A stretch of DNA of 64,000 bases from an uncultured virus (IMG/VR IMGVR_UViG_3300044634_004095) (taxonomy: Duplodnaviria > Heunggongvirae > Uroviricota > Caudoviricetes). Shown in pieces: positions 1 to 49,000 of this stretch (within the stretch, counting starts at the first letter, position 1; the number at the start of each line of letters is the position of its first letter). Location: IMG/VR virus record IMGVR_UViG_3300044634_004095; one strand, 5' to 3'. Under the pieces are notes generated by a model. That model was not told the DNA's origin and made no database searches. It saw nothing but the letters and a program-made list of their open reading frames with translations. A program made the position numbers and the translations under genes.

Positions 1-3000
1 AATGTAGACGACTCCACTATTGTAATCTTGATCACTCAATGATATTTCCTCTTCAAATCTACGAACTGGCACCCCGAGTTTCTCTTGCATTTCAAGCTGT
101 TGTTCTGCGGAAATCTCATCATCATCGCGCAGTAAGATGTAAGCAATGTCGTCTTTTGTAACCCCGCTTTTACCATTCCCTGGGTGAACTTGGGCCTCTA
201 TGTAGTCAACTGCTGTTTTAATTTCTCCACCAAATATGTCATCATCTAAGTCTATGTACTGATCAGACATTGCCCTCATTCCAAATCCTGGAGCATTGAA
301 TGATGACGCAGATGCCATTGTCGAAAGTGAGTCAACCTCAGAAACGGTAGATCTAGAATTTACGCTCGGCTTAAGAACTACAAGGAACTGCCCATACCCT
401 AAGCCTATGTCCTCCATCTCTTCACCTATTCCTCCGTAGGTTGCGAAACCGTATATCGGACGCAGGCGAGGCTCCATCGATGGATGATAGCCGAACATCG
501 ATACTTCTTGAGCAGCCCTGTAGCCAGGGTCGTATGCACCATTTGATCTTCCTGCTTCAAATTGAGAAAGTATTCTTCGATCGTCTCCAGTGCCATCAAA
601 AATTTCTTCTAGCGCGTCCATGTCAAGAGCAATGACCACTCTGTCCTCTTTGAATGGACCTCGGCGCATTGTTCCGAATGTTTTAGGAACAAAATCAGAA
701 TCTGTTAGCTGGAAGTAATAATCTGTAAGTCTTCTAGTCTGATTTATCATTTTTTCGATTAGTGACGATACTGTAACTCCCAATTCTTTAGCTTCTCTTT
801 CTGCCCATAGCGTGCGCGTTGCAATAGTTGTTGCACGCTGGAGTAGTCCATTGGCAATGATGTCAGCTTCAAATTCGCGCAAGTCTGAATACTTTCTTTG
901 CAATATTTCAAGCATTTTAATTTTAGATATCAATAACTGGCGCCTGACTTCACCAGTTATATCTGGAGTCCGAACGGAGGCATAAGGGTGTATTTGATTG
1001 TATTTGAAGTAAAATTTAAAATCTTTATTATTCAACAGTTCATCGATTAGTTCACCCATGGATTCGCCTATCTCCGGGTCTATTGTCTCGTTGAGTAGCC
1101 AAGAAAGTGGTCTTCCTTCGTTTTTTGCCACCTCTAAAGAATTTGTTGGTTTTCTGAAATCAGCATCTACTGATTTCTTACCTTCTTCAAGACCTAATCC
1201 AGCAATCACTCTTGCATTTGTATTCTTTATATGACTGTATATTTCACCAGATTTAAATCGGTTACGCCCAGTGTTTTCTCGTTTCCCACTGCCTGAATAC
1301 TCATCGCTACCGCTAGATAGTCTTGCTTCTGGAAGGTCGTATGTTCCCCAGTCAACGTCTCCTGATATGAATTTTCTTTCAATTTCGGCAAACTTGTCTG
1401 ATAGCGCAGAGGGCCCATTGGGAAGTTCATGTATCTGAGTAACAATTGCTTTTCTTTTTTTGCCGAGGGTTACGATCTCGGACTCATTTAGGCACCCCAT
1501 GCCGGTAAATGGGTTGGCTAGAATTTCCTCTATGGGAATATAGGTGAAATATATGTGTGGAACTTCTTCTTCTACTCCGGCCATGCGTAAATCTGCAAAA
1601 TCAAAAGCCGTATTTCGGTTAGTGGACCAAGATGAAATCGGTCTACTTTCAATCGAAGCCTCGAATAAGAGTGGTTCATTAGTTTCTGGAATTTTCGTTA
1701 TTCTTCTAGAATCGTAACCGGATTGTTCTACTGTCATAAGTGATCCACGATAAGCCGGGACATGTGTGATGCCTTTTGACTTATAGTATTCCTGCGTTGA
1801 CTGATACATCGATGAAATAAACTCTTGCAATACTTGCGCTTGAGAAGGGGTCAACTCTGGCGCAGAATCATATTTTTGTGATCCGTTTGAGATGATGTCT
1901 TCTTCTGCCAAGGTACGAAGAAATCCAGGCTTACTTAACGATAAAGCAGAAGATTGAAAAAGATCGGCCGTGGTTGCTGAAGGCTTTACTTGCCATCCTA
2001 CCGCTTCATCCAGAGAGAACATCCCCCTTGCTACATGCTGTATTGCTAAAGACACTGGGTTTTCGTCATTTGCTGATATTGACCATGAACGAATTAGTTC
2101 GGAAACAATTTGTTCCTTTAGTATATTTTCAAAATCAGAACTATCTTTTGAAATAATGTCTTGACCGAAGTAGCTCTTTATGAAAGTTTCTTGGTCAATA
2201 AACCCCGACAAATAATACCTATTTTCAGAAAGCGGGAACGGGGTCCCCTTCAACGGCAGTTCCCCATCGACGAATGCTTCCCAGAATTGATCAGCTTTGA
2301 TTTTTCCGGTTTTCACGTATTGGTAAAAACCTAAATTTAACGCACTTGTGAAGTTTGTATTGTACATGAGTGAACTAAGCTGCTCAAAAAACTTAGGAAA
2401 TTTTTCGTAGTTTTCTACAATCGAATCCATTAACTTAACGTCAACTTCTTCAGGATTGCCAGAAATTGTAGAATAAATTTTTGTCATTGCTTCCGTTTGA
2501 AAGTCAAAATAAAACTTTTTATTTTCCCAGTAGTTTATTGTTTCTAGTTTAGACACAACACTGTAGATCTCTTCGTCTACCCTGTTTCTGTATTCGTCTT
2601 CGCCCATATCTATAATTGGCTGAACAAATATTTCATGCAGCTCTTTTCTTTTTTCTAGGGTCAGATCTGTTACTTCGTCTACTCTTGTTTTCTCATTAAA
2701 TATTTGTCCATCGGTGATATTCAACAAGAATTTGCCTGTTCCGCCATCTTCTACGTCAACCAGTATCTCAACTACTCTCTGAAAAGAGTCACCGTCCGTG
2801 ATGAAGGGGAGTCTATCAAAATCTCTTGGATCATCAGAAAGAAAGTTTTGAATTACTGGCTTAGCTCTTCCTTTTTCAACAAAAGCGTCCACAATTTCAC
2901 GCAATGAAACGTTCATTTGTCGAGAAATGTTTTTAGCTATAAAAGATTTTGCTCGAGACGCTGGACTAACTGCCATATCCATGTCTTGTTGTCTTGTAAT

Positions 3001-6000
3001 TTTATGGATGTCGTCTAGCAAGTCTGAGTTTATGTCCCAAGTCGAAGCAGTAACTTGCCCATTATTTGTTTTTTGTGCTTTTAGCTTAGGAGATGCTCCT
3101 GGCTTGAAGAAAATCTGCCCATTATCGTCTTCGACCATGTATTTTGATTTCTTAGCCTCTTCCCCTGAAGAGAAACTGTCGCTTATTTTTTCGAGGACTA
3201 CGACATCTCGATCCATCATTCTTTTGCTGTATGGATTTTTTATTTGTCGTTTTTCAATCCCTGATACCTTGAACTTCCCTGAAACAATGCCTTCCACAAT
3301 CCCGTAATTTCCACCTTCGGCGCTTGGCTTGCCTCTTGCTGACAATCCTTGCTCGTCGAAAAAAATTCCTCTTGTATCATCGGGGAATTCAAATATAAAC
3401 TTTTCAGGAATTGAACGAATAGCTGACAATTCATCGTACTCATATTTGATGGCGTCATTTATCCCGGAAGCAACAGCTGCTGCTCTAAAATTCAGTTCTT
3501 CTCCAATATTTACTACTGACCCAACATCGGGAGTCAGTCTTGCCACCCTGTATGTCCTGTGGCCGATAGGAGGGGCAGACTCAAGACCATTCCTGATTAT
3601 CTCAGCAGCTCGATAAAGGGCGGCGTCTTCGGGTACATTCTCTAGATTTTCGACCTCACCAGCTAGATGTCGACTAATCTTCCTACTTTCAGCAAAGCTA
3701 CTGCGCCACAAATTGAGAGTATCTCCCAATTCGGTATCACTCGGTACAATGCCAGGATGCCAGTGTGAGCGAATTAAGAAATTGCTCATCCTGTTTCTGT
3801 CGTTCAGCTTGTCAAGGGCATCTGAAGAACTGTCCAACTCTCCGCTTGTCGGCACGTATCTATACTGATTGCCATATCCAGACTCTTTTCTAAAATGCAT
3901 ATTTGGGAATCTTGCGATCATCACACTCATTGGGAATTCGTCTTTGAACCATGCTTCTGGAATAGAGATGCGTTCCGGGCCAGTTCCGGCAGATCTAATT
4001 TGGCTTCGGGCTGAGTCGGGATCTACAATTTCGTTTATGTTCGACAATATCTCGCCACCAGAAAAAAAAGCAGTTTGACCGGACTCGTCAACTGGGGTTG
4101 AATAATCGTTTCTAGATGTTGAAAATCTGTCATTATTTGCAATTCTTAGAATTGCGTTTTCGCTCAATAGGTAAAGAAGCGTATCTTGCTGTAATCGATC
4201 GTCTTCTCCGATTCTGAATATATCTTTTATTTTAGGGTCAGATGTGAAAGCCGTTATACTTTCTAACTTTAATTGCGTGCTTCCAGAGTGCGGTCTTGAA
4301 TCAACTCTTAGATCAAAAGCAATGTCGCGCATTTTTAGATCTATATTTTCCTTTGATCCATCTTCCCCACCGGGGAGTATCGGCGTTACGTATTTTGAGT
4401 TACCGGTCGCTTGTACTCCTGCTTCCCCGAGAGCTTCGTTTACAAGTCTTTGTCGCTCTTTCATAGTTTCGGCAAAAGCTGATTCCCAAACTTGTTGCTG
4501 TTCTGGAGTCCACTCATATTGGAGACCTTCAGGTTTTTCAACCTTAGAGTAGTCGGCTACGGCTGGTAGCTCGATTACGCGATAGGTGCCTGCTGAAAAT
4601 AAAATTCCATCTTCGGGTGGGGGCGTTAAGTAGCTGTCGACGACATACAGGTTCTCTAGAGACCCGGGATTATCCTCGTTTACTTTTTTCATCTGACTTA
4701 CGATTGCATAACTTTTTCCCTGTGCGCTGGGCCTGTACAGATGACCTTGAACAAGGTGATTTAATGAAAAATGGACACTGTGCCTATTCGTCCTTAGTGG
4801 CTCCCCGGTATATGGGTTTATTACGACTTGTTGAGTATCTTGATTTACTACATCGTAATCGCCATTTGGGTAAATTCTTAAATTTCCATCTTTGTCAATT
4901 TGTGGCTTATGAACAGTTTCATGGACCAGGAATAAGTCATCAAATTTTAGTATCCGAGTTTTGGACTCATATTGATCTTTTTCAGTGGTAACCATGATAT
5001 CGCCTGCGCGGTAGTTATTTACCCACCATGCATCGTCTCTATCTTCCGGTCTTACTCCTCCAAGGGAATACCTAGGGCTTGAACTGAAGAAATTTTCTCT
5101 TCTGTCTGTGAATATTTTTTCAGCAACGGCACTCAGTCTTTCAAGTTCTGCTAAGGCATCCCTGTCTCCACGGGCCGCAGCATACAGTAAGGCTGATGTT
5201 CTTGATTCCCGAGAACGGTCTTCATCTACTTGCGCAACTGTGGCCATAAACCAAAGACGAGCGAATTCTCGCCCCTCCTTTGACTTTGGTGAGGTATTGG
5301 AAATGACATATGGGTTCACTGGGAGTCGAAGCACACCTGGGGCATCAATTGAATCTCTTGTGAATGCTATTTGTTTTCCATTTATGTCGTGAACTGGAAC
5401 AAGTGTATCTGTCGTTTCGTTTCTGTCAGGCCTTGCGTATATCTTTCCTTTTACTTCTGCCACTGGATCTTTGGATACAGTTCCTATTCTGTCGATATCG
5501 TTTGCCCCAGAGGAGAGCCGCATGCGTTGTTCTCTAAATGAATTGCGTTGTCTAGTTGAAACCCCAGACCTCTTTGAAGGTCTTCTTAGAACTATCCTAT
5601 CCCGTGGGCCAAGATAAACCCCACCCACTGTTCTGCCGGTAATTTCATCTATTCTTCTATCCGATCCGCTTGCAAAATTTCTTCTTTCCGCGCTGCCTTC
5701 TTCGTATTCGTCATGGGTTATAAAGCGGTCGGATGTATTTGCAATTCTTGCTCGATGATTGTCCGACAATACTGCCCAACTAATAGGGTCGACAATTAAA
5801 TTCCTCAATTTGTCTTCGTCGTCTGTGACTTTCTCTATGTCATGGGAGTTTGAGTTGAAATGTCCCCTGGCAGTGACCATTAATTCAGTTGCGATTTGTC
5901 CGACCTTGAGGTCCTGATGATCATTCGAGCTCGATCCTCCGGTCTCTCCACCATCAAACGAGTTAGTACCGAAAGATAAAAGCAACTGTCTCAACTCTTC

Positions 6001-9000
6001 ATCTACATTTTCAGATGACTCGTTATTTTCAAGTATTGTTGCTCCACGTAATACGAGTGGTTTTTCTGGTTCTGGGACAAACCATGAATCAATAACGAAC
6101 AAGTTTTCAAGAGCTCCTGGATTATCCTCTATAACACTTCTTAAAGGAGTTACGATAATATTGGATTTAGATTTTCTTTCCCTGAATGAATGTCCCCTGG
6201 CTAGGTGATTCAACGTAAAGTGAATGGTTTGTCTGTGATGCTTATATACACCACCATCTTCCGTTGGGATATAACCATAGTCTCCGGCTGGTCTAAGAAG
6301 TACGTTTCCAGCTTCATCTTTTACTATGTCGTATGTTGTTTCATGAACGACATAAAGATCATCTATTGAAAGATTTCCTATACCTTTTTCATCTGCGGTA
6401 GCTTGAAAATACTTTATTTGCGCTGGAGAAAGACGTCCTTCTGTTTGTATTCTTCTTTGTTCTTCTATTAGAAGCTCGCCCTTTTTCGCAAGATCTTCAA
6501 ACTCCAACATCGAATCTGCGTCTCCACGCATTCCAGCATAAAGTAAAGCGTCTACATATGTTGATGCTTGGTCCCCGGAACTTTCGTAACGAGCAGCTCT
6601 TGCCGCTATCCAACGGATGGCCGTGTCGCGCCCCTCTGCCGAAGTTGGCGAAAGGCCACTTATGACGTACGGGTTTAATGGAATAATCTTTATTTCTTTA
6701 TCAGTAATTTGGCTCTTTATTTTTTCAGGAATATGACCAAAATAAATTTTATCGTTCCCTATGGCGTGAACTTCTCCACGCATGCGGACATCTTTACCAT
6801 TTCTGTCCTGATAAACATTAGACAATAACGTTTTTTGAGTCTGTTTATTAAAAGCTCCAGCTGGGTATACTTGAGCTGGGCCTCCTGAAGAAAATCTTAA
6901 ATCTTCGTTTTTGAGTATCTCTCTTCTGTTTGGTCCAAGCATCTCCATTGCAAGAGAGGAAGCTGGCCCGGATCGATCACGACCCTTTGGATTATTAACA
7001 AGCCTAAGTTTTGAAGAGGAGCTTTGATTTGTATTCTGTGGAATCCGACGTTGACGTTCAGCACCAGATGACAAACGCATATCTATGACTTTTCTAATTT
7101 GACTTCTAGCTACGTCGATGCGGTCTCTGGCTGCGCTTCTTAAATTTGTACCAATAGAAGTTCTTTTGATTAACCTATCTCTCTCTTCTATTTCTTTCCA
7201 CGGCGTCTCTCCGTCCCGCAATCCAAGAAATGCACGAGCATCATCTCGTAGTTTTTTTGTAATCCATCTTTCTTGAGCGGTTGGGTCTGGATGGAGAACC
7301 GCTACTGCTCCTTCTGCCAATGCCTCTATCAGGTTTGTGTTCCCGTAACTGTGCGCCGTGCTTGCAAAAGGAAGATTTAACCATTGCTCGTCAAATCCTG
7401 CTCCGTTCGGGTCTTTGGCTAGCGTGCTCTTTTGAATACTCTGTTGATCTATTAATGGTTCGAAACTATAATATTCTTCCGCGACACGTAGACCTCGGTA
7501 GCGTGCCGCTCTTCCCTCAGCGGTGCCGTAGTCTCGAATGTACTGACGACCCGTCGCTTTTAGGTCTCTGTAAGGAAGTGCGGCTGGGTTAGTAGCAAAA
7601 ACCCCTCCCAGCTCAGCCTCAATCATTGCCCGCATATGTATGTAATGAACGAGTTCGTGTTTAAAAACAGCAGATATAGATCGATCCATCACTGTTGTGC
7701 TGCCAATACTGAATTCCGAGGTAAGATCTATTTCTCCCTGAGATGTTCTTCCGGTTTCAATTGCTTCCCACGCAGCAACAATGTTCAGAGTTGGGACAAG
7801 TTGATCCAGCCAGGCTGCAGAAAGCGAATCATCTGTCTGAATGTTTTTTACTATAGGGGGAGACCCGAATGTCTCCATTAGCCATTTAAGCTCAGGACTC
7901 GCATCGAGTGAAGCTTCAACAGCTTTTCTCAAAAGATTTACATTTTGCGGAGAAAAATCAATTTCTGTCTTGCGCGATTTTAGCAATTCAATTATTAGTT
8001 TTCTCATTAATGTTCGTATTTCTTCTGGTGAAGCCCAATTGCTCGGAGGAATTGGAAACAAATCAAAAATAATTTCCATGTATTCATCTTCACTAGAAGG
8101 CACCATTAAGTTTGCAATCTGACTTGATGATAGCCCCTGCAAGAAACCAGGAGTTGATATTCTTAGTTCAACACCCATCTCCGTTATCTGCCCATATCTA
8201 TAATCCATAGATTGATGCCTCTTGAGCTGCTCTAACTCATCGCGACGCAGTGGCTTAAGGAGAGGATCAATCTTTATTATTGGCCTGTCTCTATCTGGTT
8301 TTGCAGGAGGTATTCCGACATCCAGTATTGGTCGGTCATCGTCCCCCGAGGAAAACCTTGCAGTTTCACTTTCAAAATTTATAAATCTTCTCTTAGCTGC
8401 GTCAAATTCTTCACGTGCAGTTTGAAAATTCTTTGTTCTCTCGTCTAGGAAATCTTCTCTTTGGGCCCTGTCTAGAATTCTGTTATCCCAACCGCGACTT
8501 TCTGCCTGATTAATCATCGCGTGCATGACCATTCCGGCAGCAGTTGCATCCTGTTCCGCTGAATGATGCCTATCGAGGCGCACTTCAAGATATTCGGCTA
8601 GAGCGCTTAGTGTAGTAGATGCGACTCTTGTGTCTCCGCGGATGACTGATGGACCATCTTTGTTTTCTTCAGAATATTTTGGAAGAACCATTTGAGCCAT
8701 ATCAAGAGAATCAATGTATCCAGATGGACGCCACATAATCCCGGCCTCCGCGAGAGCATCCTCAAGGACGTTTTTGTCAAATATTGCGTTTTGTACGCCC
8801 ATTATTGCGCCCGGGCCAGCGAACTCAGCGACCATGCGATGAGCGTCCTGAATACTCATCTGCTGTGCAAGCCACTCATCGGTAAGCGGCTCTCCGTCTG
8901 TTCTGTAAAGATTCAACCTTGACCACTCTCTCAATGGTTCGGTCGGATTCATAAACAAATTTAATTTGTCTATAACTTTTCCACCTCTCATCTTCACAAG

Positions 9001-12000
9001 AGCTATTTCTACTGGCTTACCATTGCTCGCACGTTCCCTGAAGCGGTCAAAGTCAATACCTGTAGTTTCGTAATCAATAAAAATTATGTCTCTATTGTTA
9101 AATATTTCTCTTAGCTCGCGCCAAGTTTTTGCTTCACCAAATATGAAGTCAGCCTCACCTATAAACGGTCCGTAACTTGGTTCGCGGGGAAATGACGGCA
9201 TTTTTACTTCACCACTGCTAAGGCGTCGGGGGTTATCGTCTGGATCATAACCAAATTCGAGAAGAGAATTTCCTTCAGTGAAAAGGTGCTTTGCTTTTAC
9301 TCGCTGACTTACTATTCTGTATTTTCCTTTTCCTCCCAGATTGGAGTCTCCGTGAAGTTTTGCGTATGACCGCAATGGGCTAACCCAGTCGCCAGCGTTT
9401 ATTTTTAGATTTTTGTCAATGTGCTTTGCATTCCTAAGCATTTCTATTTCTCGACTAATTTCGTCATAGTATTCGTTTATGTCTGATATATCTGCAGAAA
9501 CATACTTTGGAACTCGGCCATATTGTAAAATATGTGATTTCTGTGTTTCTAGTTCTTTTATTCTCTCATTGGGGAGTAAAGGAACAGCACGATAGACCGT
9601 AACTAGCGCTTCAGGCTTGCCCTTGATTTGCTTTATAATTCTAAGTGCTTCTGGAGCCAACGGGTCGGTACTGGCGTAGAGGGCAGCACCGTTTGGCCCA
9701 TAGACTTCTTCTGGATACATTCCGTCAGCAATATTGTGCATCGGAGCGCCACTGTTCCTATCGGGAGCCTGGTGGAAACCTCTGTAGTCTTCGTCCTTAC
9801 TAAATGGAACATCGGAAGTACCGCTTGAAAATCTGTCAGACCCAAGTTTGCTATCGAAACGCCTATCAGTCACATTAATTAACGCCGAGCGACGAGGCCC
9901 CTTTACGGGACCAGTCCCTCCAGTTGCGGCCTTCCACCATTTGTCGCCATCGTCTGTTGTCGCTCCCGCTGAAATCTCATAAGTTGGCATACTGATGCGT
10001 AATGCGTCAAGGAGGGCCGACCCAATCCCCATCCTTTTAAAATCTTCGCCTACTTCTATCATCGCCACAACAGCAGTACTGTCGATACTTTCGGAATTGT
10101 AATCAATGTATCCTGCTAGCTTCCCACTTTCATCGAAAGCAGCTAAGTATCCGTTGTACTGATCACGACCGGGGGAGTCACCGCCATGAGACAAAGTAAA
10201 CCTTTTGCCCCCAACATTGAATCCGACCGGGTCATCAAACGGTTTATCTTTTCCTAGCCGCTCAATTTCTATCGTTACTTTCTGGCCTGAGGAAAATTTA
10301 TTATCGTGATCCTTAACTGCTGATGAAAGAAATTTTATTGGGCTTATTTCCCCCGATGCTAGCGGAAGTTTGTTTTTAGTTGCAGCGTTCCGTGAGTTCA
10401 TTTCGCTTGTAGACCATTCGTCGACTACTGACGCAGGGAGCCGATCAAGCAATAGCTTTAAGCGGAGATCTTGATTTTTTTGATATCGCTCCTTATCTAT
10501 TACTCTGCGATAGCCAACTTCTATGCCATTTCCGTTATTCAATTCCGAAAAGAAAGTAGATAAAGATTCTTTATTTGCTTTTGACAGCATCTCTTCAGGA
10601 TTCTTAAAGGATGAATAAGTCATTCCGTTTTCAGTGTAGTAACCGCTTAGGAGTTGTTCTCTTTCTGTTTTTGTAAAATATTTTTTTGTTGCGGTGTCGT
10701 TGTTTTCTGCCAAAAGCTGCCTATGCAGCGCCCCGACCATTTTTGATCTAGAGGCGGCCCCATTCCACTCAAAACCGTTCATGCCCCAATAGGTTGCTCC
10801 GTTTGAGGAATAGGCATCTCCAAATGGAGAGTCCTTCACTATGTCGGATCTGCCGGTGAGACTTATTGAATCAACTTCTAGAGCTTTCCATATATTTTCA
10901 GAGTAAGCCATGAAAGAAGTGCTAATCCCTGAATTCCTAAGCTCAGGCTTTACGAAAATTTGGTTTAAATCAACCGAGAGACCGGTATTTGTAATTGATA
11001 ATTTAAAGCTAGCCGTACCAACGTCTGACAATTCTTGAACATTTGTTCCAGCTACATTTTCTTGAGGAAAACTTAATTTTACATCAACATAAACGGGCAA
11101 AGATTCTCCCGATGCAACAACGCTCGCTCCGTAGTCCACGCTGCTTACTTGAGATGATAAAGGCAATTCTTCTTGTGCGAATATGTTTGATCGAGAAACA
11201 TCGATCAACAATTCTGATCCAAGATTGAACCTCTCTCCACTAGAGCTTTCTACTACAACATTATTTCTTAGAGGAATAGAAATATTGTTAAATAATTTAT
11301 TCAGTGATTGCAAAAAGTTGTCTTTTAGGCTGTCGTCATCGGCAAATTCTAAGTATGAAAATCTTTCTGGCTGCTCAATATTCTTGTTTTCTGGAGTAAA
11401 TAATTTTCCAGAACGCCATTGAATCGATGGTAAAACAAAGTTGACAATCATGTCTCTTGTGTCGAAAGCGTTGGTAAGTTTTTCACCATCTAGTTTTTGT
11501 CTTTCGACTTCTGTTTCATAATTGGCACCAGAAGAAAAGGTGTCCGAGCCACCATCGACGGAGCTAATTTCTCTATCTTCAAAGTCTATTGAAGTATTTT
11601 TATCTAAATTATAAAACTCGTGAAGGTTAGAAATTGTATTTAGCAAACCATTTAATGGTCGATTAGCAGGGGTTGCCTCTGCGAATGCTCTACCGTCATC
11701 GCTAAGTGCGTTGCTGTGTTGAAGGTTGAATTCTGGAAAAGCTTCTCTTTGCGTGTAGAACATCTCTGCCGCAATACCGCGCCTGCGGTGACCGCGTCTT
11801 GTCTGGATTTCCAAAACTTCTAGCTGGCCATCATTTGGAGCCCAAACTGACATCCTTGCTATGACTGGTGCGGTTCCTTTTCCCGTAAGGCTCCGAAGTA
11901 CGTCCTGGTCATCGACATCATTTGGACCAATTGGTGATTTCTTTTTATTAAAAGGGTTTTCGCCTTGTTCGTCAAATATTTTTGCAAGAGAATTGCGTTC

Positions 12001-22031: not shown

Positions 22032-22033
22032 AA

Positions 22034-24405: not shown

Positions 24406-25791
24406 TTACGCAGTAGGAGCGGCGTCGAATTCAACCTTGACGAATGCTTCTGGACGCTTTACCGCAAGGGCGAGGCGTTGTTCGGCGAGAATAACAATCG
24501 CGTTGCGGATGAAGAAATCGCTGTGCTGCTCACTGATGCGGATAGATGCCTGCTCGCGGTCATAAAGCTGAGCACCGGTGCCAAACGCGCCGACCAAAGC
24601 CATACCTTCCTGCATTGCTGGAGTATCAACAAGTGGCATTCTCCATACTCTTGGCTCGCCACCCATCGCAACAGAAACTGCGATGAGGTACTGGCCATTG
24701 ACGTCTTTTGTCAATTCGATGTCTTCCCAATCATTTGGGTGAACAACGATACCGCTTGGCTCGTAGTAAGCCAAGAAGGAGAGTGTAGCCGCACGGCGAA
24801 TTGCGTCAGCTTTGGTGTCACCAGCCGTAACGTTTGCAACTCCAGCAACACCGTCAGACCAAGCGTATTCCTGGACTCCTGGGGTGTTCATCACGCCGAG
24901 CAAGTTTTCGCCCAGTCCGTCACCGTTGAGGATTTGATTGTCCTCAAGGAGGCGCAAGCCGTACATAAGCTCGTTGTCGATGATTGAGCGAAGCTGTGGT
25001 TCATCGGCAAGAACGTTGCGGTGTGCTGCTTCCCAGTGAGCGAGTGTTCTAATTGGGGCCTGTTCACCAACGAACTGGAATGAAGATTGTGGCTTCAACC
25101 CAAATACTCCGCCAACTCTTTCAGCGACAGTAGACGCTGCGTTGTTGGTTGAGTAGGTGCTTGCAGTTACGCCTGGAGCAGAAATCGTCGTAAAACCGAT
25201 TTGACGGAAGTACTCAATAACTGCTGCTGTTGTAGTCCGAACAGGGAACAAGTCACGAACGCGCTTTGTGCGTGTTGGTGGTGTTACCATCGGATCGCGC
25301 TGAACCGTACCGAAAGAGCCGAGACGGCTGTCAGCTACGGTTGTTGAAGGCAAGCCAGAGAAGACATCCTTCACATTGTAGCCACTCAAAGAGATGTTTG
25401 CCATCCATGGAGCTGCCATGTTTGCGCCGTTACGGCCACCAGCAAGTGCCTTGAACTCTACTGAGTCAAGGAACATCTGACCGATGCTCTTGATCTCGCT
25501 TGAGGTCAATTGGCTGATTTCTGATGCTGCAGCTGAATAGCTTGATGCGACCGACTCTGATGCTGGCTGCGAAGACCAGCTGTCAACGTCACCCATTGTC
25601 TGCAAGTCAGAAAGGAGTGATTTAATTTCCTTAATGTCACGCATGTTCTTGTCGAATGCTGTTTTTTGTTCTGAAGAAACAACAACTGTTCCTTCTTCTA
25701 CCTTGAATGAGTCAGCAATGGCCTTATTGTCAGCCATTTTAACTCTGAGAGCTGATTGCAGCTCATCAATTCTTCCATTGTCTTGCGACAT
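24406..25791 (-). CDS. Major capsid protein, HK97 fold
   Basis: Coiled N-terminal delta-like region, EDNQILNGDG, VHPNDW, KDVNGQY, AEQRLALAVKRPEAF. Confidence 0.93.
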   Translation of the reverse strand: MSQDNGRIDELQSALRVKMADNKAIADSFKVEEGTVVVSSEQKTAFDKNMRDIKEIKSLLSDLQTMGDVDSWSSQPASESVASSYSAAASEISQLTSSEIKSIGQMFLDSVEFKALAGGRNGANMAAPWMANISLSGYNVKDVFSGLPSTTVADSRLGSFGTVQRDPMVTPPTRTKRVRDLFPVRTTTAAVIEYFRQIGFTTISAPGVTASTYSTNNAASTVAERVGGVFGLKPQSSFQFVGEQAPIRTLAHWEAAHRNVLADEPQLRSIIDNELMYGLRLLEDNQILNGDGLGENLLGVMNTPGVQEYAWSDGVAGVANVTAGDTKADAIRRAATLSFLAYYEPSGIVVHPNDWEDIELTKDVNGQYLIAVSVAMGGEPRVWRMPLVDTPAMQEGMALVGAFGTGAQLYDREQASIRISEQHSDFFIRNAIVILAEQRLALAVKRPEAFVKVEFDAAPTA

Positions 25792-30093: not shown

Positions 30094-30597
30094 TTATTTA
30101 CCTTCCAGATTACGCATAATCTTCATAGCCATCCACGCTTCTTTTCTTTCAGTTTGTGTCCCAAAAGAATAAGTTCCGCCTACTGACTTTAGCATTTCTC
30201 CGCAGCATGTAGAAGTAGCAGCAAGTTTATCGTCACTATTTGCAAGGAAAAGAAGAGCTCTTGCGTCTTTCGTTTTAATTTTACTGCGAGCTTCTCCGAC
30301 TGAAGTAAGGATTACGGCTTGCTCTAAAGATTTTTCTGGAATTTCTTTTTCTTTTGTTACAAAAGTCTTATACCAAGAACCATTGACAACGTTCTTTGGT
30401 TTATCCCATAGAAAGCGATGAAACCGAGTCGTTCTAAATTTTTTGAGACCAGAAACTTTTGATGTTGTTGATATGAAGTTCACTTTAATCGAAGACCCAT
30501 TTTGTCTTTCTATAATTCCATCTTTTTCTCCAGGGCCAGCGTCTGTTATGTAATACAACTTGTCATTATGAATAGAGCCCACAAGTACAGCCTTCAC
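30094..30597 (-). CDS. Hypothetical protein
   Basis: 167 aa ORF, coupled to the upstream gene. Confidence 0.65.
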   Translation of the reverse strand: MKAVLVGSIHNDKLYYITDAGPGEKDGIIERQNGSSIKVNFISTTSKVSGLKKFRTTRFHRFLWDKPKNVVNGSWYKTFVTKEKEIPEKSLEQAVILTSVGEARSKIKTKDARALLFLANSDDKLAATSTCCGEMLKSVGGTYSFGTQTERKEAWMAMKIMRNLEGK

Positions 30598-38168: not shown

Positions 38169-38173
38169 CTCTA

Positions 38174-39913
<1,740 letters not shown>

Positions 39914-40018: not shown

Positions 40019-43000
40019 TTATTTGTTGATTATTTCTGGCGAGGTTTTTCTTTTTCCCTTACGTCCAGGAGCAGAAGGCTTGTACACCGTCGTGCCTTCC
40101 CTTAAGCGGGTCTGGGCATTCCTCAACTGCTCACCGCTGAAGATGTCTTCTATTGTGTGGTTTGTGCCAAATATTTTATTAAATTGATCAACGAATTCCT
40201 GCAATTCGGACCTCGAGAATCTAGGCACGTCGCCTAATCTTTTTGAAAAAGTCTTACCTCTTCTTTTTGCGGCAGCCTGCAGTACGGTCCCCATTTCCCT
40301 GCTATTGATAATAAATTGCCTACTTTGAACACTGTTAAGGCTTGAACCAGGGAATGACCTATCAATGAATTCTGTTAAAGCTTCATACACGTTGGCCTTG
40401 GATGCCAAAAGCTCCTCATCCAGCTTTTGGCCTGCCTTATTTACGCCGAATACATCGCGAGCATTCGGGATGACCCCAGTTCTGATCATTTCCGCAATAT
40501 AGGCAATGGGTACTCCATCTTTTTTCCACTCTTTCACGGCGTCTTCACCAAGTCCAACGTCTACCTTCTTCACGTCGTCTGGATCAAGTTCGGCGTCTAC
40601 CTTCTTCACGTCGTCTGGATCAAGTTCGGCGTCTAAATCCTCTCCAAAAGCTTTTTCCAGGATTGGCTTAAGTTGCTTCGGCCATTCATCTTCCGATATG
40701 CCGAGATGGTCAAGAAGTTGCGATAAAGTAAAATCTGCTCGCTGAACACGGCTACCCTTGCCTCTGCGGGCGTTGCTGGCAATATCAGGGGGAAGGGCCT
40801 CGAAAGCCTCGCCCATAGTTCCTTGATAGCTTAATTCTACCTCTGCCTCTGAGTCGTCCCTTGCGGCAGGAGAATTCTCGAACTTGCCTACGGCGTTGAA
40901 TCGTCTTGCTCCGTCCTCCAGGTCATCAAACTCTTCCGCGGTAAGCATCTTCCCTGACCCATAGATCTCCTCCTCGGCGATCCCCCCTATAAAGTCTCCC
41001 CTGTCGTGCCAGTATGGATAAGCGTCTGCTCCAAATGTTTCGATAATAAAACGATCTCTCATGTTTGCACGGCCGGTATTTTCGACGAGTCTTTCTATGG
41101 CGTTCATGCCTTCTTCTTCGGCTTCCATATCGGATACTGGAGAAAACAATCTCCACCCGCTAAATTCTGGCTGACTACCAATTTCGGCCAATAGATACCT
41201 TACGGTGTCGTGCGTGAGCGCAGCCGTATCGCCCTTAAGCTTTGCTTCTTCCGTAACGTTAAGTCCAAGGAGTTTTGCTAGTTTCGGGATGGTAAGCGGC
41301 TCTGACTGGGTCCAATATACCCCCACTTTGGGAGTAGCCACGTCCACGACCTCCTCCCCTTGTAGCTCCGAAGTTATAGTTCCTCTGGATATATCTTCTT
41401 GCCTGCGCCATCCAGTAGGGATTCTGACGGTGTCAAGTAGTTTGCTTATCGAAAGCATCCATGAATCACCGGAAGGATCATTGTTTGCAAAATTGTCGGT
41501 TGTTTTACCGATCTTAACGACTCTTGATCCGTCGCTTTGCTTTCTTGCTCGCATCCTTTCTCCGACTTTTATGATGTTGTCATTAATTTTTTTTGCACGA
41601 TCATTCTTCGATGTTGAATTTTGATCTGCTGGCATATCTAAGGCAATGCCTGTCTGATTGAAGGCGTTCCAGAATTGCATCGCATAACGAGTTACTCTGT
41701 CTCTATCTTGAGGGTCAATGCGCACATCTGTACGTATTCCTGCGAGCTCTAGGGCAGATAGGCGCTGCTGCATTCCTGCCCTATTCTCAAATCTGCTCAC
41801 GCGTCTTCCGAACCTGCCCTCTGGAGTTCCAGTTATTTTTGAAGCCCTACTCGAACCTTTTGCTACATCAGGAGCTTCCTCGGATGTTTCCGAAGGTTCC
41901 GCACCTGAAGAGAATCCAGCATCAAAATCTTCATCAAAATCATCATCATCATCATCTTCAGCCTCGATCGTGCTTATTTCGTCAAGCTCGTCAAGCACAT
42001 TGTCAGCGTCGTCCACAGTCAGGTCCTCGTCTGAAATCCCCCGCCCGTCATCTTCTCCCTCTGGAAACTGAGCGGCTGGGTCAAACATTGGACCATCGAT
42101 AATTTCGCGTGCTCGTTCTCTCATTATGCGGACGGAAGCATCACGTAACGTTTCTTCCGAAACATTTGCGTCGGCAAATTCATCCATCACTTCTTTTCTT
42201 CGTTTGATGAACCCTTGTGTTGCTACGTCAGGTACGCCTATTCGTCTCATTTCAGCAATTAATTCATCATCCGGAAGACTCAGGACGCTTCTTCTTGAAG
42301 CGTTAAAATCGGTTAGGTCTTTCCCTTCCGCGGCATACTCTTCTATTTCTCTATACACTTTTGGCAATTTGTCGAGTGATAATTCACTCTCTCTGTCAAA
42401 ATCTTCTGGCAAAATTTTACGTTCGACACCGTCGCGAATGAGGTCTGCAATTTCTTTACGCTTTTGACCTTCGGCAAAGTGCGCCATCCACATTCTCGGT
42501 GATAGTGATATCGCTCTCATAGCCCTAGTTACGACCACGTGTTGAAGATTCATTTCTTCTATCCAGCCCGGAGGTCCCGAACCGTTGCGCTTAGCTGCTT
42601 CAAGAATGTCTACGTTTAAGTCATCGTCAGGATCTGTAAAGTCATCAAGCACCAGAACAAATTTTCCTTCTTTGCCTTTTGCTGTTGTTCCAGTTTGTAT
42701 GACGACATCACCACCGCGTTTTTTTGCACTTTTGCGAACAGCATCACCAATGAGGTTTATTATTCTTGTAGCTTCTTCTGGGTCATCTTTTGCATCTATG
42801 ACGAATCCGTCATAATCTCTGCCCTTTGCGCGGCTCACCTTCGGGCCAACTCCGAAGCTCAGTCTCGTCCTCGACTGAAGCCCTAGGCGATCAAGTATCC
42901 CTAAAGTGTCGGACAGGTATGCTCCATCGAAGTTCCTTCCGGAAGTATCCGGGTACTTGTTCGGATCTGCATATACCGCCTGAGGTCTTCCAGTATCGAC

Positions 43001-46000
43001 TCCGTCACCAGAAAGAATTAATTTTCCAGTCCATTTAAATTGTTTAGTTGCATAAAAAGTTTCACGTGGATCTGTGCCCGTGTTTGATCTGCCAGCTGTA
43101 GCTGTCATAACAAGTTTATTTCGCATTCTTCGAAAAGCGATTTTTTCTAGTTCTTCTACCGTTTCAGCTTCTCCAAACTCAGCAATTGTCTCAAACTTTG
43201 GGGTTCCGTCAGCCTTTGTCCACTTCGATGTGACTCTTAATCTTTCTCCAGGCTGATCTGGTATTTTTTCTACAATAACCTGAAAGTCATCTGGGTTAAT
43301 AGCATCTTGGCCGTCTTTGAAATCATATTCAAGTTCAAAATAAACAGCATCCTTGGTTCCTTTTGCATCAGGCTGTACAACAAATATTTTTGTTGCGGCG
43401 TTAACATCTGATGATTTTGAACTCCTATCTGTACTTGACAGAATCTGACTAAGAGTTTTTTCTTCAAACTCCATCAAGCCTAGATCAAGGCTGTCCCTCA
43501 TTGGCCTGATGCTAGAAGAACGGTGCGACTTTGTCCCATCCGCAAGCACTACTCCGCCACCCCTTAGGGAAACAAGCATCTGGCTTGCAAACATTGTCTG
43601 AGATCCGGCTGGTTGTCCGTCTACTGGTTGAAACAACAATTGATACAATGAATTTCCTGGAGATTTTGATTTTAATTTAAATCTTTCTCTTATTGTTGCC
43701 ATATCCCAATAATCTCCGATTAAAGGTGATTTTTCTGGTTTTCTTCCAGGGTTTAAACCGGCTGCAGTTTTTTCAGCCCAGTCAATATGTTGAAAGAAAT
43801 CAACAGCTTCTTGCCATGCTGACTGAGTTAACATTATTTGAGGTTTGTCTTTTGAACTTAAAGGCTTAACGAGTTGATCAAATTCATTTTGAGTTAGATT
43901 CTGGGAATCACGCAGTGTTTCTGGATTGTCGATTCTTCCGCCAAGGAAAACTGCACTTTCAAGGAATAAGTCTTTCCATGTTTGAACTGCTAAATGGACA
44001 GTTTGAACTTTTCCACGCGACAGAGCCATGTCTGGCAAATTACCAAAATAAACTTCTTCTTTTTCATCGACAACTCGAGTGCTTAAGGCTTTTGCAATTT
44101 TAGTTTTTGCGTCGTCTATTTCTTTTCTTAATTCAGTAAGCGCTTTTGCTCTTGCTTTTGGCGTCATTCCTGCAAAGTTTTCACCGTTTAAATATGAATC
44201 AAAACTAACTCCATAAAGTCGCTTAACAGTATCGTTAACGCTGTTTGCTGCACCAAAATCGCCAGCTTTAACAAATGAAAAAATATTTTCTATGTGTCGT
44301 TTAGCTGCCGTGTCAGCAGCCCCTTCAACGTATTTCCACTGCTCTGCAGTTAACGGTTTGCCTTCATCCAAGAGATCCTGAAGTAACTTATTTTCCCGAC
44401 CAAGAATGAGCGTCGCCATGTACCCGAGAAGACTACCAAAGCGAAATGACTGTGTTAATTTCGGCACAAAATCGGGAGAAATTGACTGCATTATATTCTT
44501 TGAACCGTTGAAGCCAAGTATCTGCTGTCTGTCGTCGCCGACTGCTATTGTAGAAACTCTTTCTTTATTTCTGTTTAGTAATTCTTCCCAAACTTCATTA
44601 AGGTCTTGTGCTTCGTCGATCGCAAAAAGAGATATAGGTTTTTCTTTTGATGCGTATTGTTTTTTCAATTTGCCACGACTTCCATCGATAGAGACCACAA
44701 CCCATGGTTCTCCTTCCGATTTGTCCCATTGACGTATAGACGAAATTCTTCCAGTTTGCGGATCTATTACTTCATCATAAAATTTATTATTTTTTCCATA
44801 ATAGACAACATCGCCCCTGCGTATATTAAATTGTGCAGGTATTTTTTCATTCGCTAGGCTGTCTTTGCTTCCGTGCCCAAGAGCACCAGGATTTGTTGAT
44901 AGATCCGGATCGGCGAGCAGTAGCAGTTTTGGCAACTGCCCCTGAGTTGGGAGCAACATGCCGTTTCCATCAACCAATTCATCTGCGGCTTTTTTGACAT
45001 ATGAAAGCCATTCATCCATCAGTTTATCTGGAACGTTTTGAAGTTGTTCATCGATTGCTTGTGTTTTTTTCTGTGCCTTTTTAGTTGAGAATCTGCCGGT
45101 CATCGTGTCAGTTTGCTCGCGGAAGCTTAGATTAAAAACATCTTTTGTGACTTCCGGGTTTGAAGACAATGACCACCTTCTGAATGCCATTGCAAGGTAT
45201 TCGCCAAAAAAGTCTACTTCGATCCAATTATTCCCGTCAGGCATGGTAAAAGGGACATCATACACTTCAATATTTTTAGTTTTTGCCTTTTTGCCTTTTC
45301 CTCTTGTAACGCTTATTGTTCTTCTGGGAAGACTCACACCAGCTTTTTCGAGAAATGCAAGCATGTCCTTGCCAGTTTCCACGGTTGAATAGCCAAGATC
45401 TTTGTAGTTAGGCCTGTATCCAATGAATTGCATACTCTCTGAGTCATGCTGTCTTCTTGCTTGGTCATAACCATCCACAGTTATGGGTTGGTTTCTATTT
45501 TTAAACGATCTTCTTCTTGCATAGTCAGTTAGTAGTTCTATTTTTCTTCTCATCGACGGCGCATTTAATATTCTATTTTCCGGGCTGTCATTTTCTGCGA
45601 TTCCTTGACGCAAGGACCAGTAAGCAAGCTGAGTAGTCGTTCCTATTCCTGTGTTCCCAGGAAATGATTCAGCTGCTTCTAGGCGGTTTTCTTTACCGAA
45701 AACCGTGTAGTAGATTGTCGGTTTATTATCTTCCGTTACTCCACGAGATTCTCCCAATTCCCTGATTGCTTGGATTAGGGTTTTTTCATCTGTGCTCTCT
45801 GGCCAAAAAACATCAACGTCTTCAAAACCTTTTGCTGGGTACTTAGCTGCAAGATAATTTGCTTTTTTTAGTAGCTGTTGCTTTCTAGTAACAGCATCTC
45901 CGGCAAATCTTTGTAGAATGTCATCAACGCTAAATTCAGCATTGATTGCTGCTGCGAGCATCTTCATTGTGGTTGTTTTACCGGAACCCGCTGCCGCATC

Positions 46001-49000
46001 AACTCCGATAACTAATTTTTCTTGACCGTATACAGCTGCTAATCCAAGATCAATAATGTCTCGCTGTTCATCCGTAGGAGGAACAAGAAGATTAAGAAGA
46101 GACTTAACGTCTGTTGAAGCAGGAGTTCTTCTTACGGGTCTTTTTTTCGATCCACTACGAGCATTTATTGGATTTCCGCCACTGGCGAATCTTCCGTCGA
46201 GCGTAAGCGCCCTGCCCTGAGAGTCGGACACAGAGGCAATATCGCCATACATACGCTCTTCTTTTGACTGAGAGCCATATTTTCTTCTGTCTTTTGAAGA
46301 AGAAAGGTCTGAAGTGTCAGTAACGTCGTCCTCTTTGTCGAGGAAGGGAATTCCACTGGAGAAACGTTTGTCGATGTTGTCCGCTCTATCAATAAGGTCA
46401 ATGTCTCCCATTGGGCCGCTGATTGGTCTGCTTGTTGGTACTTTTGGTGAATCCTCATACCCTTCTAACATTGAAAGCGGAACGGTGTCTCTTGATGACT
46501 TTTTAGCTTTTCTTTCGTTATCCTCCATGCCCGATAGACGCCGCAATGTTTTGGATCTATTTAGCATCCAGTCAACGGCTTGCTGCGCTTGACCCATGGC
46601 AGTCTTGATAGCGTTTGGATCGTTTCTAATCTTTTCTGCCCAGAATTTTAGATATCCTATGTGATCTTCTCTAACCATGGGCGAAATGCCAAGCATTCCC
46701 AGCAAAAAGGAAGACCCAACTTCTGCTATGAGCTCCTCAAACGCGTACGCCGGTGACCCATATTTTGCAACTTGAGGTCTATTGTTCCGGCTTGGATGCC
46801 CAGTCCAGTGCGTCATTTCGTGCAATAGGGTTGAGTAATAACTTTCCGCATCATTAAACGTTTCGAACGGCGGCATATTTATGAAGTCGCCGTTTGGAGA
46901 GAAAAATGGCCCGCCAACATTTGACTCTCTTAATCTTGGATTTAATTCTTTAACTATCGCTTCTGCATTTTTAACACGAGCTTTTGGACTCAGGTTTTCC
47001 AGGTCGATTTCTGGCTTATACATTTCAGGAGGCAGACCATCAATATCCGCTACGTTATAGACTTCTTCAACTTTGTACTGACGTGGATCTGATCCAAGTA
47101 TCGGAACTAAGATATTTACAGGACGAGCATTCGGCGATGCTTTCCCTTTAAATTTTTTCCATTGACTTATCCCTGCCCATTTATTGGTTTCGTAACCACG
47201 TGATACCGCTATGGAGTTTAACAACATACGGTTGGTCCCCTGGTAGGACCAGCTTTTTTGACCTTGGTTCTTCTTTGTTGGGTTTCGGGGGTTGTGCTCC
47301 CCTTCTCTCCATGGCATATTCCATTTGAATTTTTCTGGATTATTTACAGCTTCTTGAAGCATTTCAAGAATTTGTTTGCCAATTTGAGCGTAGTATTCAT
47401 CGATTACGGCTCTGCCCTCAGCTGTTGCCGTATCTACTATGTCGCCAGGCTTTAGAGAATTATTACCGTCTCCTCCTGAAGAAAACTTTCCAGTAGAAGA
47501 AACTTGGTTAAAAAAGCCATCGAACTTAAACCGCTCATCTATGGTTTTGTCGCTTTCGCGTTTTCTTAGAAAATCCAAATAGTTTTTGTTTTTTGCCTGA
47601 GCCTGCTTCCTGGCCGCAGACATAGATCTACTTATCTCTTTTTTTGGTTTTGCTGTTACTATTTCCCGCGAACCACTGCCTAGCGGCCGAGCTTCTGTTC
47701 CCGCTACCGAGGAGCGCTCTGGGGCTTCAATTTTACCGGGGACTTTTGGATTATTGATTGAGCCTGGACCGTCTGGTGTTGGGTCGGGCTGCTCAAGAGA
47801 AGTACCACGAAGGAATATACCTTCGCCCACAATCCCATTGAGGTTGCGGTCAATAGCTGTCCTTGGATCAAAATTCTCAGCATTTGGGGTCGAGAAAAAT
47901 CTACCTGCAGATCTTGCTCCCCCGATGCCGGGTTTATTATTGGCTCTACTTCCTATGGCTCTTCCGAGCCTGTAGGCGGATACCTTAAATTCTAGATCGT
48001 CACTGATTAAACTTTTTTTTTTTAAATTATCTAAAGCTGTATCGATAGCGTCAATCAACTCATAAGAAACACCATTTGTTATTACTATTCCTTCTGGGTC
48101 AACATACGTATCTACCTTATGGTAGTCAAATACTGGATCTAACGCTTGCTTTACGTGAAAAGCATAATCTGTGGATACTGGCAGGAAATACGGCTTTTCT
48201 GGTTCAAAAGAATCTTCAAACGTACCGAACTCGGCTAGATGTTTGAATTTCCGCTTTTTTCTTCTTTTTCTTTTTACTATTCCACGCAGTCCGGCAATAA
48301 ACAGCTCTCCTGGATACTTGAACTCAAAGTCAGCAATATATTCGTTTTCGTTATCCTCTGTCTCGAATTCGTATTCTTTTTTGGCCATAAAGTCGCCTTT
48401 TACAACACCTGGTGGGATTATGGCAAAGCGACACTTCCCTTCAGGCTCTATTGCCATGTCGATAATCTGGCAGCTGTTGTCCTTGTTATAAAAAACGCAG
48501 TTTGAGCATTTAACCCCAATTCCAGCAACTGGATTTTGTGCAGCTGGTTTGTAGCCTGCCCAAATTCCATCAGAATCTTCGTTTATTTTTCCGTGACGCT
48601 TTACGATCTTTAGTAGTGCGTCTCTGAGGTCTGACTCTTCTTGATCCAGGTCATCGGCACTAATTGGCTTGCGGCTCTGCCCTTCGTACTGCACTGCTGG
48701 TAGGGGTACCACCGTCATTCCGTTTGGCCCTGGCTTTATGGCAATGGGAATCGATGGCATCTGGCTCGGACGAACAACCCTCTGGGGATCTACCGGAGGC
48801 AACCCGCCAACAGGCATAACTGGAGGTGAAGTTTGAGGCTTAGCAACGATCACTATTCTTTCTGGAGCGCCAAACATAAAGCGGCCATTGCCACCTCTGG
48901 AAAAATGACATTTATACTTTTCCATTGAATTTGACTGGTCTGTTCTGTTGAAGGAGACCATTCCGTTGTCTTCGTCAACTTCCGTCACAGAGACTTGATT

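Follow-up and report, generated by a model that had tools for sequence, protein, structure and literature searches.

The uncultured virus record IMGVR_UViG_3300044634_004095 (Duplodnaviria; Heunggongvirae; Uroviricota; Caudoviricetes) comprises 104,099 bases and was judged to be 65% complete. We analyzed bases 34617-98616 of this record, a stretch of 64,000 nucleotides that is referred to as the window, and focused on three giant open reading frames (ORFs), termed g1, g2, and g3, whose proteins are punctuated by a short peptide of the form [F/L][S/A]SG. All three are located on the minus strand (Table 1). The tailed-phage genes recognized in the window encode the large terminase, the portal protein, an HK97-type major capsid protein and neck proteins; a primase, a ribonucleotide reductase and recombination genes were recognized as well. 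Both g2 and g3 are placed between the portal and capsid genes.

The Junction Motif and Its Conservation

A preliminary description of the window, made from its letters without database searches, had listed [F/L][S/A]SG positions in the three giant proteins. Every position listed was found to be real. For g1 the 13 positions and an additional near-motif, FFSG at residue 3202, were correct, while an LASG at residue 1104 was missing from the list. Altogether there are 21 sites, of which 14 are in g1, three in g2 and four in g3. When each protein was shuffled 2000 times the mean number of sites was 0.54 (maximum 4), 0.27 (maximum 4), and 0.30 (maximum 3), respectively, and each protein has more sites than its shuffled mean, with about 1.1 sites expected in total. 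FSSG alone accounts for 14 copies (0.20 expected); among all tetrapeptides of the three giants combined it ranks first in frequency as well as in enrichment. An arginine or lysine immediately precedes 13 of the 21 sites, in agreement with the motif having been described as often preceded by R/K.

In blastp, no similarity among the three giants was found at E ≤ 0.01. Among the 21 sites there are 20 distinct 12-mers, and both TCN and AGY serine codons are used, so the free codon usage noted earlier is borne out. A DNA repeat or a duplicated linker was considered as the source of the motif and ruled out on these two grounds. The motif is thus conserved at the protein level and arose independently in unrelated sequence.

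No site was found in the 28 other ORFs of at least 150 amino acids in the window (9,132 amino acids). The motif is thus confined to the giants within the window, as had been noted, but not beyond it. Among ORFs of at least 120 amino acids in the whole 104-kb record, the only carrier besides the giants was a 901-amino-acid ORF at record positions 101395-104099, which is located beyond the window end and is cut by the contig end. It comes after sheath, tube and chaperone-sized genes, and it is a probable tape measure protein because the full-length forms of its relatives are open frames of 1545-1738 amino acids.

We also considered whether the motif is depleted from ordinary proteins. Among 500 distinct ORFs near the portal gene one site was found compared to 12.3 ± 3.6 expected, with a reversed-motif control giving 12 compared to 11.7. 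The depletion vanished genome-wide (2 vs. 2.2 in ordinary proteins of the present record, and 2 vs. 4.6, P = 0.18, in a complete 148-kb relative) and was rejected; we attribute the effect near the portal mostly to the relatedness of the loci. In the complete relative one FSSG each was present in a 478-amino-acid protein of unknown family and in a 698-amino-acid protein resembling a minor tail or central fibre protein; with the genome-wide expectation just given, these two could be due to chance.

A search with g3 residues 1-720 identified 280 giant proteins at E ≤ 0.001 among 5271 candidates, and the counts given here are for the 120 listed of these 280. All 120 carried at least three sites, with 1278 sites in 387,152 amino acids compared to 35 expected. 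In an unbiased tetrapeptide count of the same proteins LSSG ranked first, with 1042 copies in 118 of the 120 proteins (95-fold), while FSSG was found in 147 copies in 47 proteins. The FSSG of the window is a lineage-specific spelling of a motif for which LSSG is the usual form in the family. The extended consensus is [RK]-[LF]-S-S-G-[RKA], with [RKGS] before and [RK] following the [RKA] after the core, and little else is conserved. All 10 giant homologues of g1 had 6-15 sites each (0.3-0.7 expected), and all 24 homologues of g2 had 3-6 sites each, 104 in total compared to 7.1 expected, at places matching positions 1316, 1456, and 2015 down to 31% identity. The motif therefore recurs in the homologous giants of related phages for each of the three proteins. 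The preference for F or L was common to different giants apparently of one contig (r = 0.95), which is a weak indication from nine pairs representing about two lineages, the contigs having been matched by equal length alone.

Location of the Sites Relative to Protein Modules

The sites had been proposed to fall at the edges of modules, and several kinds of evidence agree on this placement. In 13 diverse homologues only one of 189 sites was inside a Pfam match, compared to 29.4 expected with matches covering 15.6% of the residues. In each of 11 proteins a site was found 6-23 residues ahead of the ArdC-N module, although the start of this module ranges from residue 982 to 3942. The ends of high-scoring segment pairs in blastp comparisons of family members tended to be near sites as well: 14.6% of 19,143 ends were within five residues of a site, compared to 3.9% of random positions, and the median distance was 35.5 residues compared to 99.5 for random positions, the alignments being mutually non-independent.

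A further kind of evidence is low predicted local distance difference test (pLDDT) values in AlphaFold2 models, both of which were of modest quality, and for which the confidence profiles alone were used. The model of g1 residues 1090-1800 (mean pLDDT 63.5, 10-row alignment) consists of folded blocks for an acetyltransferase (GNAT), an unknown module and an exonuclease; all five sites were located in the segments between these blocks, which have a pLDDT below 50 and hold 203 of the 711 residues. In the model of g3 residues 1-1200 (mean pLDDT 55.2) two of the three sites, 1094 and 1152, were in a 115-residue stretch with a pLDDT below 50, and site 720, immediately ahead of the ArdC module, coincided with a local drop in confidence to a block mean of 60, with 77 and 81 on either side. 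Hydrophobic residues were scarce in the flanks of the sites in the g3 family (0.186 vs. 0.276), and the contrast was weaker for the giants of the window (0.229 vs. 0.293).

Every Pfam or PHROG match in the giants of the window falls wholly between two consecutive sites. The pieces predicted between sites are 22-1425 residues long, and several pairs of sites are 22-60 residues apart. These short stretches resemble the spacer peptides of polyproteins.

The modules named in the preliminary description were recovered in part. The GNAT and RNase_T-type exonuclease of g1 and the Peptidase_S78, ArdC-N plus MPTase-PolyVal and UvrD-type helicase modules of g3 were recognized (Table 1), while the ADP-ribosyltransferase (ART) and zincin of g1 and the ParB module of g2 had no significant match in Pfam or PHROGs; no family was found for any part of g2 by either. 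In one homologue of g1 (P0125) the family ADPrib_exo_Tox matched residues 315-475, between its sites 297 and 509. The description counted three HExxH zincins. There are four HExxH strings (g1 residues 2005 and 2917, g2 residue 596, and g3 residue 941), and Pfam recognizes a zincin in g3 only. The PF04586 match at the N-terminus of g3 scored 42 bits compared to a cutoff of 21, and phrog_80 is the family of head maturation proteases.

A run of 11 adenines is found in the part of g3 that encodes a low-confidence linker (Table 1). A -1 or +1 shift within it meets a stop after four or one codons, respectively; the resulting short form would have about 545 amino acids and contain the protease and one domain. 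A run of 10-11 adenines occupied the corresponding position in 10 of 35 distinct relatives and was absent in 25.

A second shared short peptide, DGW[AV]DEG..(P).[WYF], was observed upstream of the first junction site. It is located at g1 residues 77-93 (window 13393-13443), and g3 of the window has a weak version only, DRNLNGIVGEG, at residues 598-608 (47819-47851). It was found in 9 of 10 g1 homologues near residues 22-81 and in 22 of the 120 g3 homologues near residues 596-607, was absent from the 24 g2 homologues, and turned up a single time among 120 shuffled sequences. A common function in targeting or in metal binding is conceivable.

Table 1. Coordinates in the window of the genes, modules and junction sites described (aa, amino acids or residue number; site positions cover the four codons of the motif).
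Feature	Position	Strand	Remarks
g1, giant ORF	1..13671	-	4557 aa in window; 4564 aa in record, ends 23 nt beyond window start; 14 sites
g1 site aa 138 FSSG	13249..13260	-	
g1 site aa 506 FSSG	12145..12156	-	
g1 site aa 712 FSSG	11527..11538	-	
g1 site aa 1104 LASG	10351..10362	-	in pLDDT<50 segment; absent from preliminary list
g1 site aa 1126 FSSG	10285..10296	-	in pLDDT<50 segment
g1 GNAT acetyltransferase, aa 1171-1227, sites 1126 to 1281	9991..10161	-	PF00583 E 2.5e-6; folded block in model
g1 site aa 1281 FSSG	9820..9831	-	in pLDDT<50 segment
g1 site aa 1484 LSSG	9211..9222	-	in pLDDT<50 segment; phrog_2579 match ends at 1482
g1 RNase_T/DnaQ-type exonuclease, aa 1530-1712, sites 1484 to 1773	8536..9084	-	PF00929 E 2.9e-11; folded block in model
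g1 site aa 1773 FSSG	8344..8355	-	in pLDDT<50 segment
g1 site aa 2200 LSSG	7063..7074	-	
g1 site aa 2260 FSSG	6883..6894	-	
g1 site aa 2666 FASG	5665..5676	-	
g1 site aa 2719 LSSG	5506..5517	-	
g1 site aa 3500 FSSG	3163..3174	-	
g1 site aa 4118 LSSG	1309..1320	-	
Major capsid protein, 461 aa, HK97 gp5 homologue with N-terminal extension	24406..25791	-	PHROG 10 E 1.1e-56; PDB 1ohg E 4.4e-46
F144-S145-G146 in capsid protein	25354..25362	-	about 4 residues from projected HK97 mature N-terminus
g2, giant ORF, 2524 aa, head module	30594..38168	-	no Pfam/PHROG family; 24 homologues with sites at matching positions
g2 site aa 1316 FSSG	34212..34223	-	
g2 site aa 1456 FSSG	33792..33803	-	
g2 site aa 2015 FSSG	32115..32126	-	
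g3, giant ORF, 3207 aa, directly downstream of portal gene	40019..49642	-	ORF, Pfam, PHROGs
g3 Peptidase_S78 (HK97-type prohead serine protease), aa 31-174, candidate processing enzyme	49121..49552	-	PF04586 E 1.3e-10; PHROG 80 E 6.9e-26
g3 A11 run, aa 540	48013..48023	-	low-confidence linker
g3 site aa 720 FSSG	47474..47485	-	S722 and G723 invariant in 47 aligned homologues
g3 ArdC-N + MPTase-PolyVal zincin, aa 749-1015, sites 720 to 1094	46598..47398	-	PF08401 E 1.2e-8; PF18818 E 7.1e-34; pLDDT 70-89
g3 site aa 1094 FSSG	46352..46363	-	in pLDDT<50 segment 1042-1156
g3 site aa 1152 FASG	46178..46189	-	in pLDDT<50 segment 1042-1156
g3 P-loop/UvrD-type helicase, aa 1202-1716, sites 1152 to 2577	44495..46039	-	PF00580, PF13245, PF13604
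g3 site aa 2577 FSSG	41903..41914	-	
Portal protein gene, directly upstream of g3	49739..51841	-	PHROG 2662 E 4.7e-63

The Fused Protease, the Capsid Protein and Junction Peptides of Other Lineages

The gene g3 occupies the slot of the protease in the head module: the portal gene is on one side of it and the major capsid gene on the other, and all three are on the minus strand. The W.H.W signature of S78 was found within the first 200 residues of 117 of the 120 listed g3 homologues. When a library of 1.84 billion proteins was searched with the domain, all of the best 150 relatives had it at the N-terminus, starting at residues 1-55, in proteins of 180-5358 residues. Many columns of the domain are invariant, and H70 and S114, the putative counterparts of HK97's catalytic pair, were invariant in 47 and 23 aligned homologues. 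A complex prediction of the protease (g3 residues 1-190, 23-row alignment) with a 41-residue linker at g1 site 2719 gave a score of 0.00; run without controls, it speaks neither for nor against binding.

The closest matches of the capsid protein are from Gordonia and Brevibacterium phages (45-54% identity). The mature N-terminus of HK97 projects to about residue 148, since residue 32 of 1ohg aligns with residue 179 of the present protein, and the residues F144-S145-G146 are close to this point. A Gordonia phage homologue reads KDVFSSGL at the same position, and 58 distinct capsid proteins of the family keep VKD[VI][YF][ST][AG][LM]P at the projected border of the delta domain. A conserved block at the point where the delta domain of HK97 is removed implies that about 145 N-terminal residues form a scaffolding domain.

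In Gordonia phage ChisanaKitsune (10744-23944), which is among the nearest cultured relatives by capsid protein, the likely counterparts are separate genes in the interval from portal to capsid. These encode an RNA ligase, a VIP2-like ADP-ribosyltransferase, a 970-amino-acid annotated HNH endonuclease and two annotated head maturation proteases, and they are without the junction motif except for a VASG, which fits a wider pattern, in the ORF at 21724-22410. A tblastn search of 50,697 phage records with g3 residues 1-720 found no cultured phage with the g3 fusion. Matches were confined to the protease part, no place in these records covered at least 80% of the query, and an isolate with the fusion is consequently not available. 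Between g3 and g2 of the window there is a 579-amino-acid ORF (38174-39913, minus strand) with no family match and without the junction motif, the N-terminal third of which is rich in runs of Met, Glu and Lys, e.g., MMPKKKKKGMGM and DEEEEME.

Lineages with an N-terminal protease of 60-84% identity were found to have over-represented peptides of their own, of the form G-[LFM]-[A/R/S]-S. GFAS was present in 21, 19, and 17 copies in three proteins, in the context D-G-F-A-S-R-G, and GLAS, GMRS, and GLRS reached 13, 14, and 8 copies, respectively. Some long protease-led giants of other lineages have no clear repeated peptide. The general form is a hydrophobic residue, then Ser, Ala or Arg, and then Ser.

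Protease residue 57 (g3 residue 57, window 49472-49474, minus strand) was observed to be Lys with Ser/Ala-type junctions, and Glu, Asp, Gly, or Ser with Arg-type junctions. None of 124 proteins with K57 was of the R-type, compared to 7 of 10 without K57. By site, 166 K57 proteins had 1517 S-, 296 A-, and 45 R-type junctions, and 23 E57 proteins had 18, 19, and 64. This suggests that residue 57 may act as a charge-matched specificity switch, a suggestion resting on about two evolutionary events.

From the variants Φ-S-S, Φ-A-S and Φ-R-S, where Φ is hydrophobic, one may guess that the scissile bond is Φ-[S/A/R] | S. A cut before the invariant Ser would agree with HK97, the capsid protein of which is cut after Lys and before Ser, and with the Ala|Ser sites of herpesvirus assemblin. 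It would likewise agree with the basic P1 residue reported for phage phi12 (PMC8569155).

A Possible Processing Pathway, Its Rivals and Known Systems

The core of the motif is invariant, it is found in linkers and at most borders, it is often paired, it travels with modules, and it is common to unrelated proteins. This is the anatomy of a polyprotein processing site, and the motif is probably a proteolytic cleavage site of one kind or another. The cleavage-site reading of the preliminary description is the best fit to junction placement and conservation; we infer the cutting itself, as well as the enzyme, its timing in the infection cycle and the packaging of the products.

In the pathway that we favor, [LF]-[SA]-S-G would be a processing site in the flexible linkers between polyprotein modules, and the N-terminal S78 protease of g3 would do the cutting. 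The protease end would carry g3 into the procapsid, with g2 and g1 entering likewise by some targeting. Inside the procapsid the chains would be cut into separate enzymes, i.e., the ArdC/zincin, the helicase, the acetyltransferase, the exonuclease and other modules, which would leave the virion together with the DNA. That the S78 domain is the cutting enzyme we would put at even odds or slightly below. It is favored by its constant presence at the N-terminus, by its slot in the head module, by the peptide of the capsid protein near the projected HK97 mature N-terminus and by the related junction peptides of lineages with a similar protease. The complete chain of linker site, S78 protease and packaged products is the best explanation of the data as a whole, and we regard its standing as finely balanced. 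Among the enzymes put forward earlier, the fused S78 protease is thus preferred; a zincin acting in cis is disfavored for reasons given below, and serine autoproteolysis in disordered linkers is unsupported. That the polyproteins may be packaged in the virion, as was also put forward, is suggested by the gene order (portal-g3-g2...capsid) and by the protease fusion.

Several observations weigh against this pathway or parts of it. The giant gene g1 adjoins the primase and nuclease genes of replication, outside the head module. The capsid protein, which is the one canonical substrate of a prohead protease, reads FSG without the exact FSSG motif. When the whole record was scanned with position weights, the threshold was reached by the giants and the tape measure protein only, and since the capsid FSG scored below it, this substrate is without the junction consensus. 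The protease domain had a pLDDT of 25-59 in the model of g3 residues 1-1200, and its pocket was therefore not examinable. No column of the protease core within residues 25-178 separates the F-rich from the L-rich lineages. When placed on the protease tree, residue 57 and the junction type showed two and three state changes and 1-2 independent pairs, so that the pattern is without statistical weight and is a lead rather than a test.

The tape measure protein weighs in the same direction. It has sites at residues 36 (FASG), 594 (FASG) and 647 (FSSG), three compared to 0.15 expected (P = 0.0004). Both the protein itself and four of five relatives have sites that fit the complete extended consensus near the N-terminus (residues 36-39) and further along the chain (647-769), these four at residues 39 and 682-769 in the full [KR]-[LF]SSG-A context; the fifth and most distant relative has neither. 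The tails of contractile-tail phages assemble apart from the heads (PMC10052503), and a protease confined to the prohead would therefore not reach the tape measure protein. This leaves three options: activity of the protease outside proheads as well, cutting after ejection, or a different enzyme.

The last of these options includes a zincin-like metallopeptidase, i.e., the MPTase-PolyVal module of g3 or the other HExxH sequences of g1 and g2, whether it cuts in cis or trans and whether it does so prior to packaging or following ejection. Each giant has at least one HExxH, the match in g3 is strong (E 7.1e-34), autoprocessing by MPTase domains has been argued for by Iyer et al. (2017; PMC5512222), and a protease that is ejected with its cargo could gain access to the tape measure protein inside the host. 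We nevertheless consider a zincin unlikely. Of 130 giant homologues, 18 are without HExxH and yet have 5-12 sites, so a zincin is not found in every protein that would be processed, and autoprocessing in cis does not explain the family in general, whereas a zincin in another protein of the same phage could act in trans. HExxH is also absent from the tape measure proteins checked. Pfam support is limited to the zincin of g3, and this MPTase is a mobile cargo module behind a junction site of its own, whereas the S78 domain is constant. A cytoplasmic enzyme of the host would also reach head cargo and tape measure protein alike, with the motif mimicking the site of a host protease in the producing or the newly infected cell, and a precedent is staphylococcal phage 80α, in which a protease of the host cleaves the capsid and scaffold proteins (cited in PMC8569155). 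Such mimicry is distinctly improbable: the junction peptide differs by lineage ([LF]SSG, G[FL]AS, G[ML]RS) while the phage protease stays 60-84% identical. No host enzyme is known to have such a specificity. An argument from a phage protease of 80α cutting after Phe was rejected, as PMC8569155 attributes that cut to a host protease.

The motif could alternatively be left uncut and serve as a short linear peptide that is recognized during packaging, by a chaperone or when the chain threads through portal and tail, or it could be a structural hinge between modules. The sequence data presented here are compatible with an uncut motif, the complex prediction gave no verdict, and the motif is common to the giants and the tape measure protein, which are very long chains that may or must pass the tail. 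Yet a handle need not occupy nearly every module border, occur in pairs 22-60 residues apart or stay 6-23 residues ahead of a domain that moves, and a core of small residues after a hydrophobic one resembles the sites of assemblin-type proteases. We judge an uncut motif to be rather unlikely. Finally, the giants could be expression polyproteins that are cut in the cytoplasm by S78 or another enzyme, yielding equimolar enzymes that are not packaged. The position of g1 among replication genes and the sites in the tape measure protein would both be explained by this, but g3 and g2 are placed between the portal and capsid genes, and cargo fused to a prohead protease has an obvious use in loading. 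Furthermore, anti-restriction proteins of the ArdC type function when the DNA enters the cell, and in plasmids they are transferred along with it (PMC5512222). Cytoplasmic polyproteins of this kind accordingly have a low probability.

The favored pathway of cleavage by the fused S78 protease has several relatives among known systems. The giants agree with the polyvalent proteins of Iyer, Burroughs, Anand, de Souza and Aravind (2017; PMC5512222) in combining ArdC-N, MPTase zincin, helicase, GNAT and nuclease modules, in a phage with portal and terminase; packaging and delivery with the DNA were predicted there, and processing by the peptidase was proposed. Several conflict domains were found per chain (PF04586, PF08401, PF18818, and PF00580 in g3; PF00583 and PF00929 in g1), and portal, large terminase, HK97-type capsid and neck genes are present in the window. 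The present proteins differ in that S78 is always N-terminal among the 150 relatives listed and that one conserved tetrapeptide punctuates the modules; the parts of PMC5512222 covered contain no junction or cleavage motif. With HK97 gp4/gp5 they share a PF04586 protease and a gp5-homologous capsid protein that is extended at the N-terminus and has a conserved peptide where cleavage is projected, but the protease of HK97 is a small separate protein for which no polyprotein cargo is known.

T4 gp21, which acts on internal proteins and Alt, phiKZ gp175 and SPN3US gp245 are alike in that one capsid protease cuts many head or ejected proteins at one consensus site; here one short consensus is common to g1, g2, g3, the tape measure protein and their homologues, the location of which in the virion we infer. 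The sites of T4 and phiKZ end in Glu. In these phages the substrates are separate, each with its own propeptide, and the protease family is other than S78, whereas the present phage has polyproteins of up to 4564 amino acids with up to 14 sites, a hydrophobic-Ser-Ser-Gly core and a protease that is part of the substrate. For SPN3US gp245, cargo is released inside the head (PMC10052503), and cutting of packaged cargo by a capsid protease at a consensus site is already established for T4 and phiKZ/SPN3US. The likeness to RNA-virus polyproteins and retroviral Gag/Gag-Pol consists of several enzymes per ORF, an embedded protease, junction sites and spacers, and a possibly slippery A11 run that could set the ratio of short to long forms, slippage and cleavage being predictions from sequence here. 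A dsDNA tailed phage without sequence relation to them would work like these viruses and is not a member of them.

No literature was found that links LSSG to phage cleavage or that describes a phage polyprotein with a capsid maturation protease and ejected anti-restriction cargo, and prohead-protease sites in ejection proteins were found for T4 and SPN3US only (subscription journals and supplements were outside the scope).

A broader picture, which we hold to be possible but doubtful, is that of a large uncultured phage group with genomes of about 150 kb (the complete relative has 148,355 bp), probably infecting freshwater Actinobacteria, that uses polyproteins in the manner of RNA viruses and retroviruses. 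The protease would lead a series of exchangeable anti-defence enzymes, ejected proteins including the tape measure protein would be cut at a lineage-specific Φ-[S/A/R]-S co-evolving with the protease, and the slippery A run would set the ratio of a short protease form to the long cargo form.

Chains of polyvalent enzymes are common in phages and plasmids, and their loading, delivery and release have so far been conjecture. The present family offers a short and defined junction peptide, hundreds of natural variants, a candidate enzyme fused to its substrate and lineages with a differing peptide, and the question of processing is therefore directly testable. If the pathway is true, the motif would split the cargo of such phages into working units from sequence alone and would provide a portable cleavage module for phage engineering.

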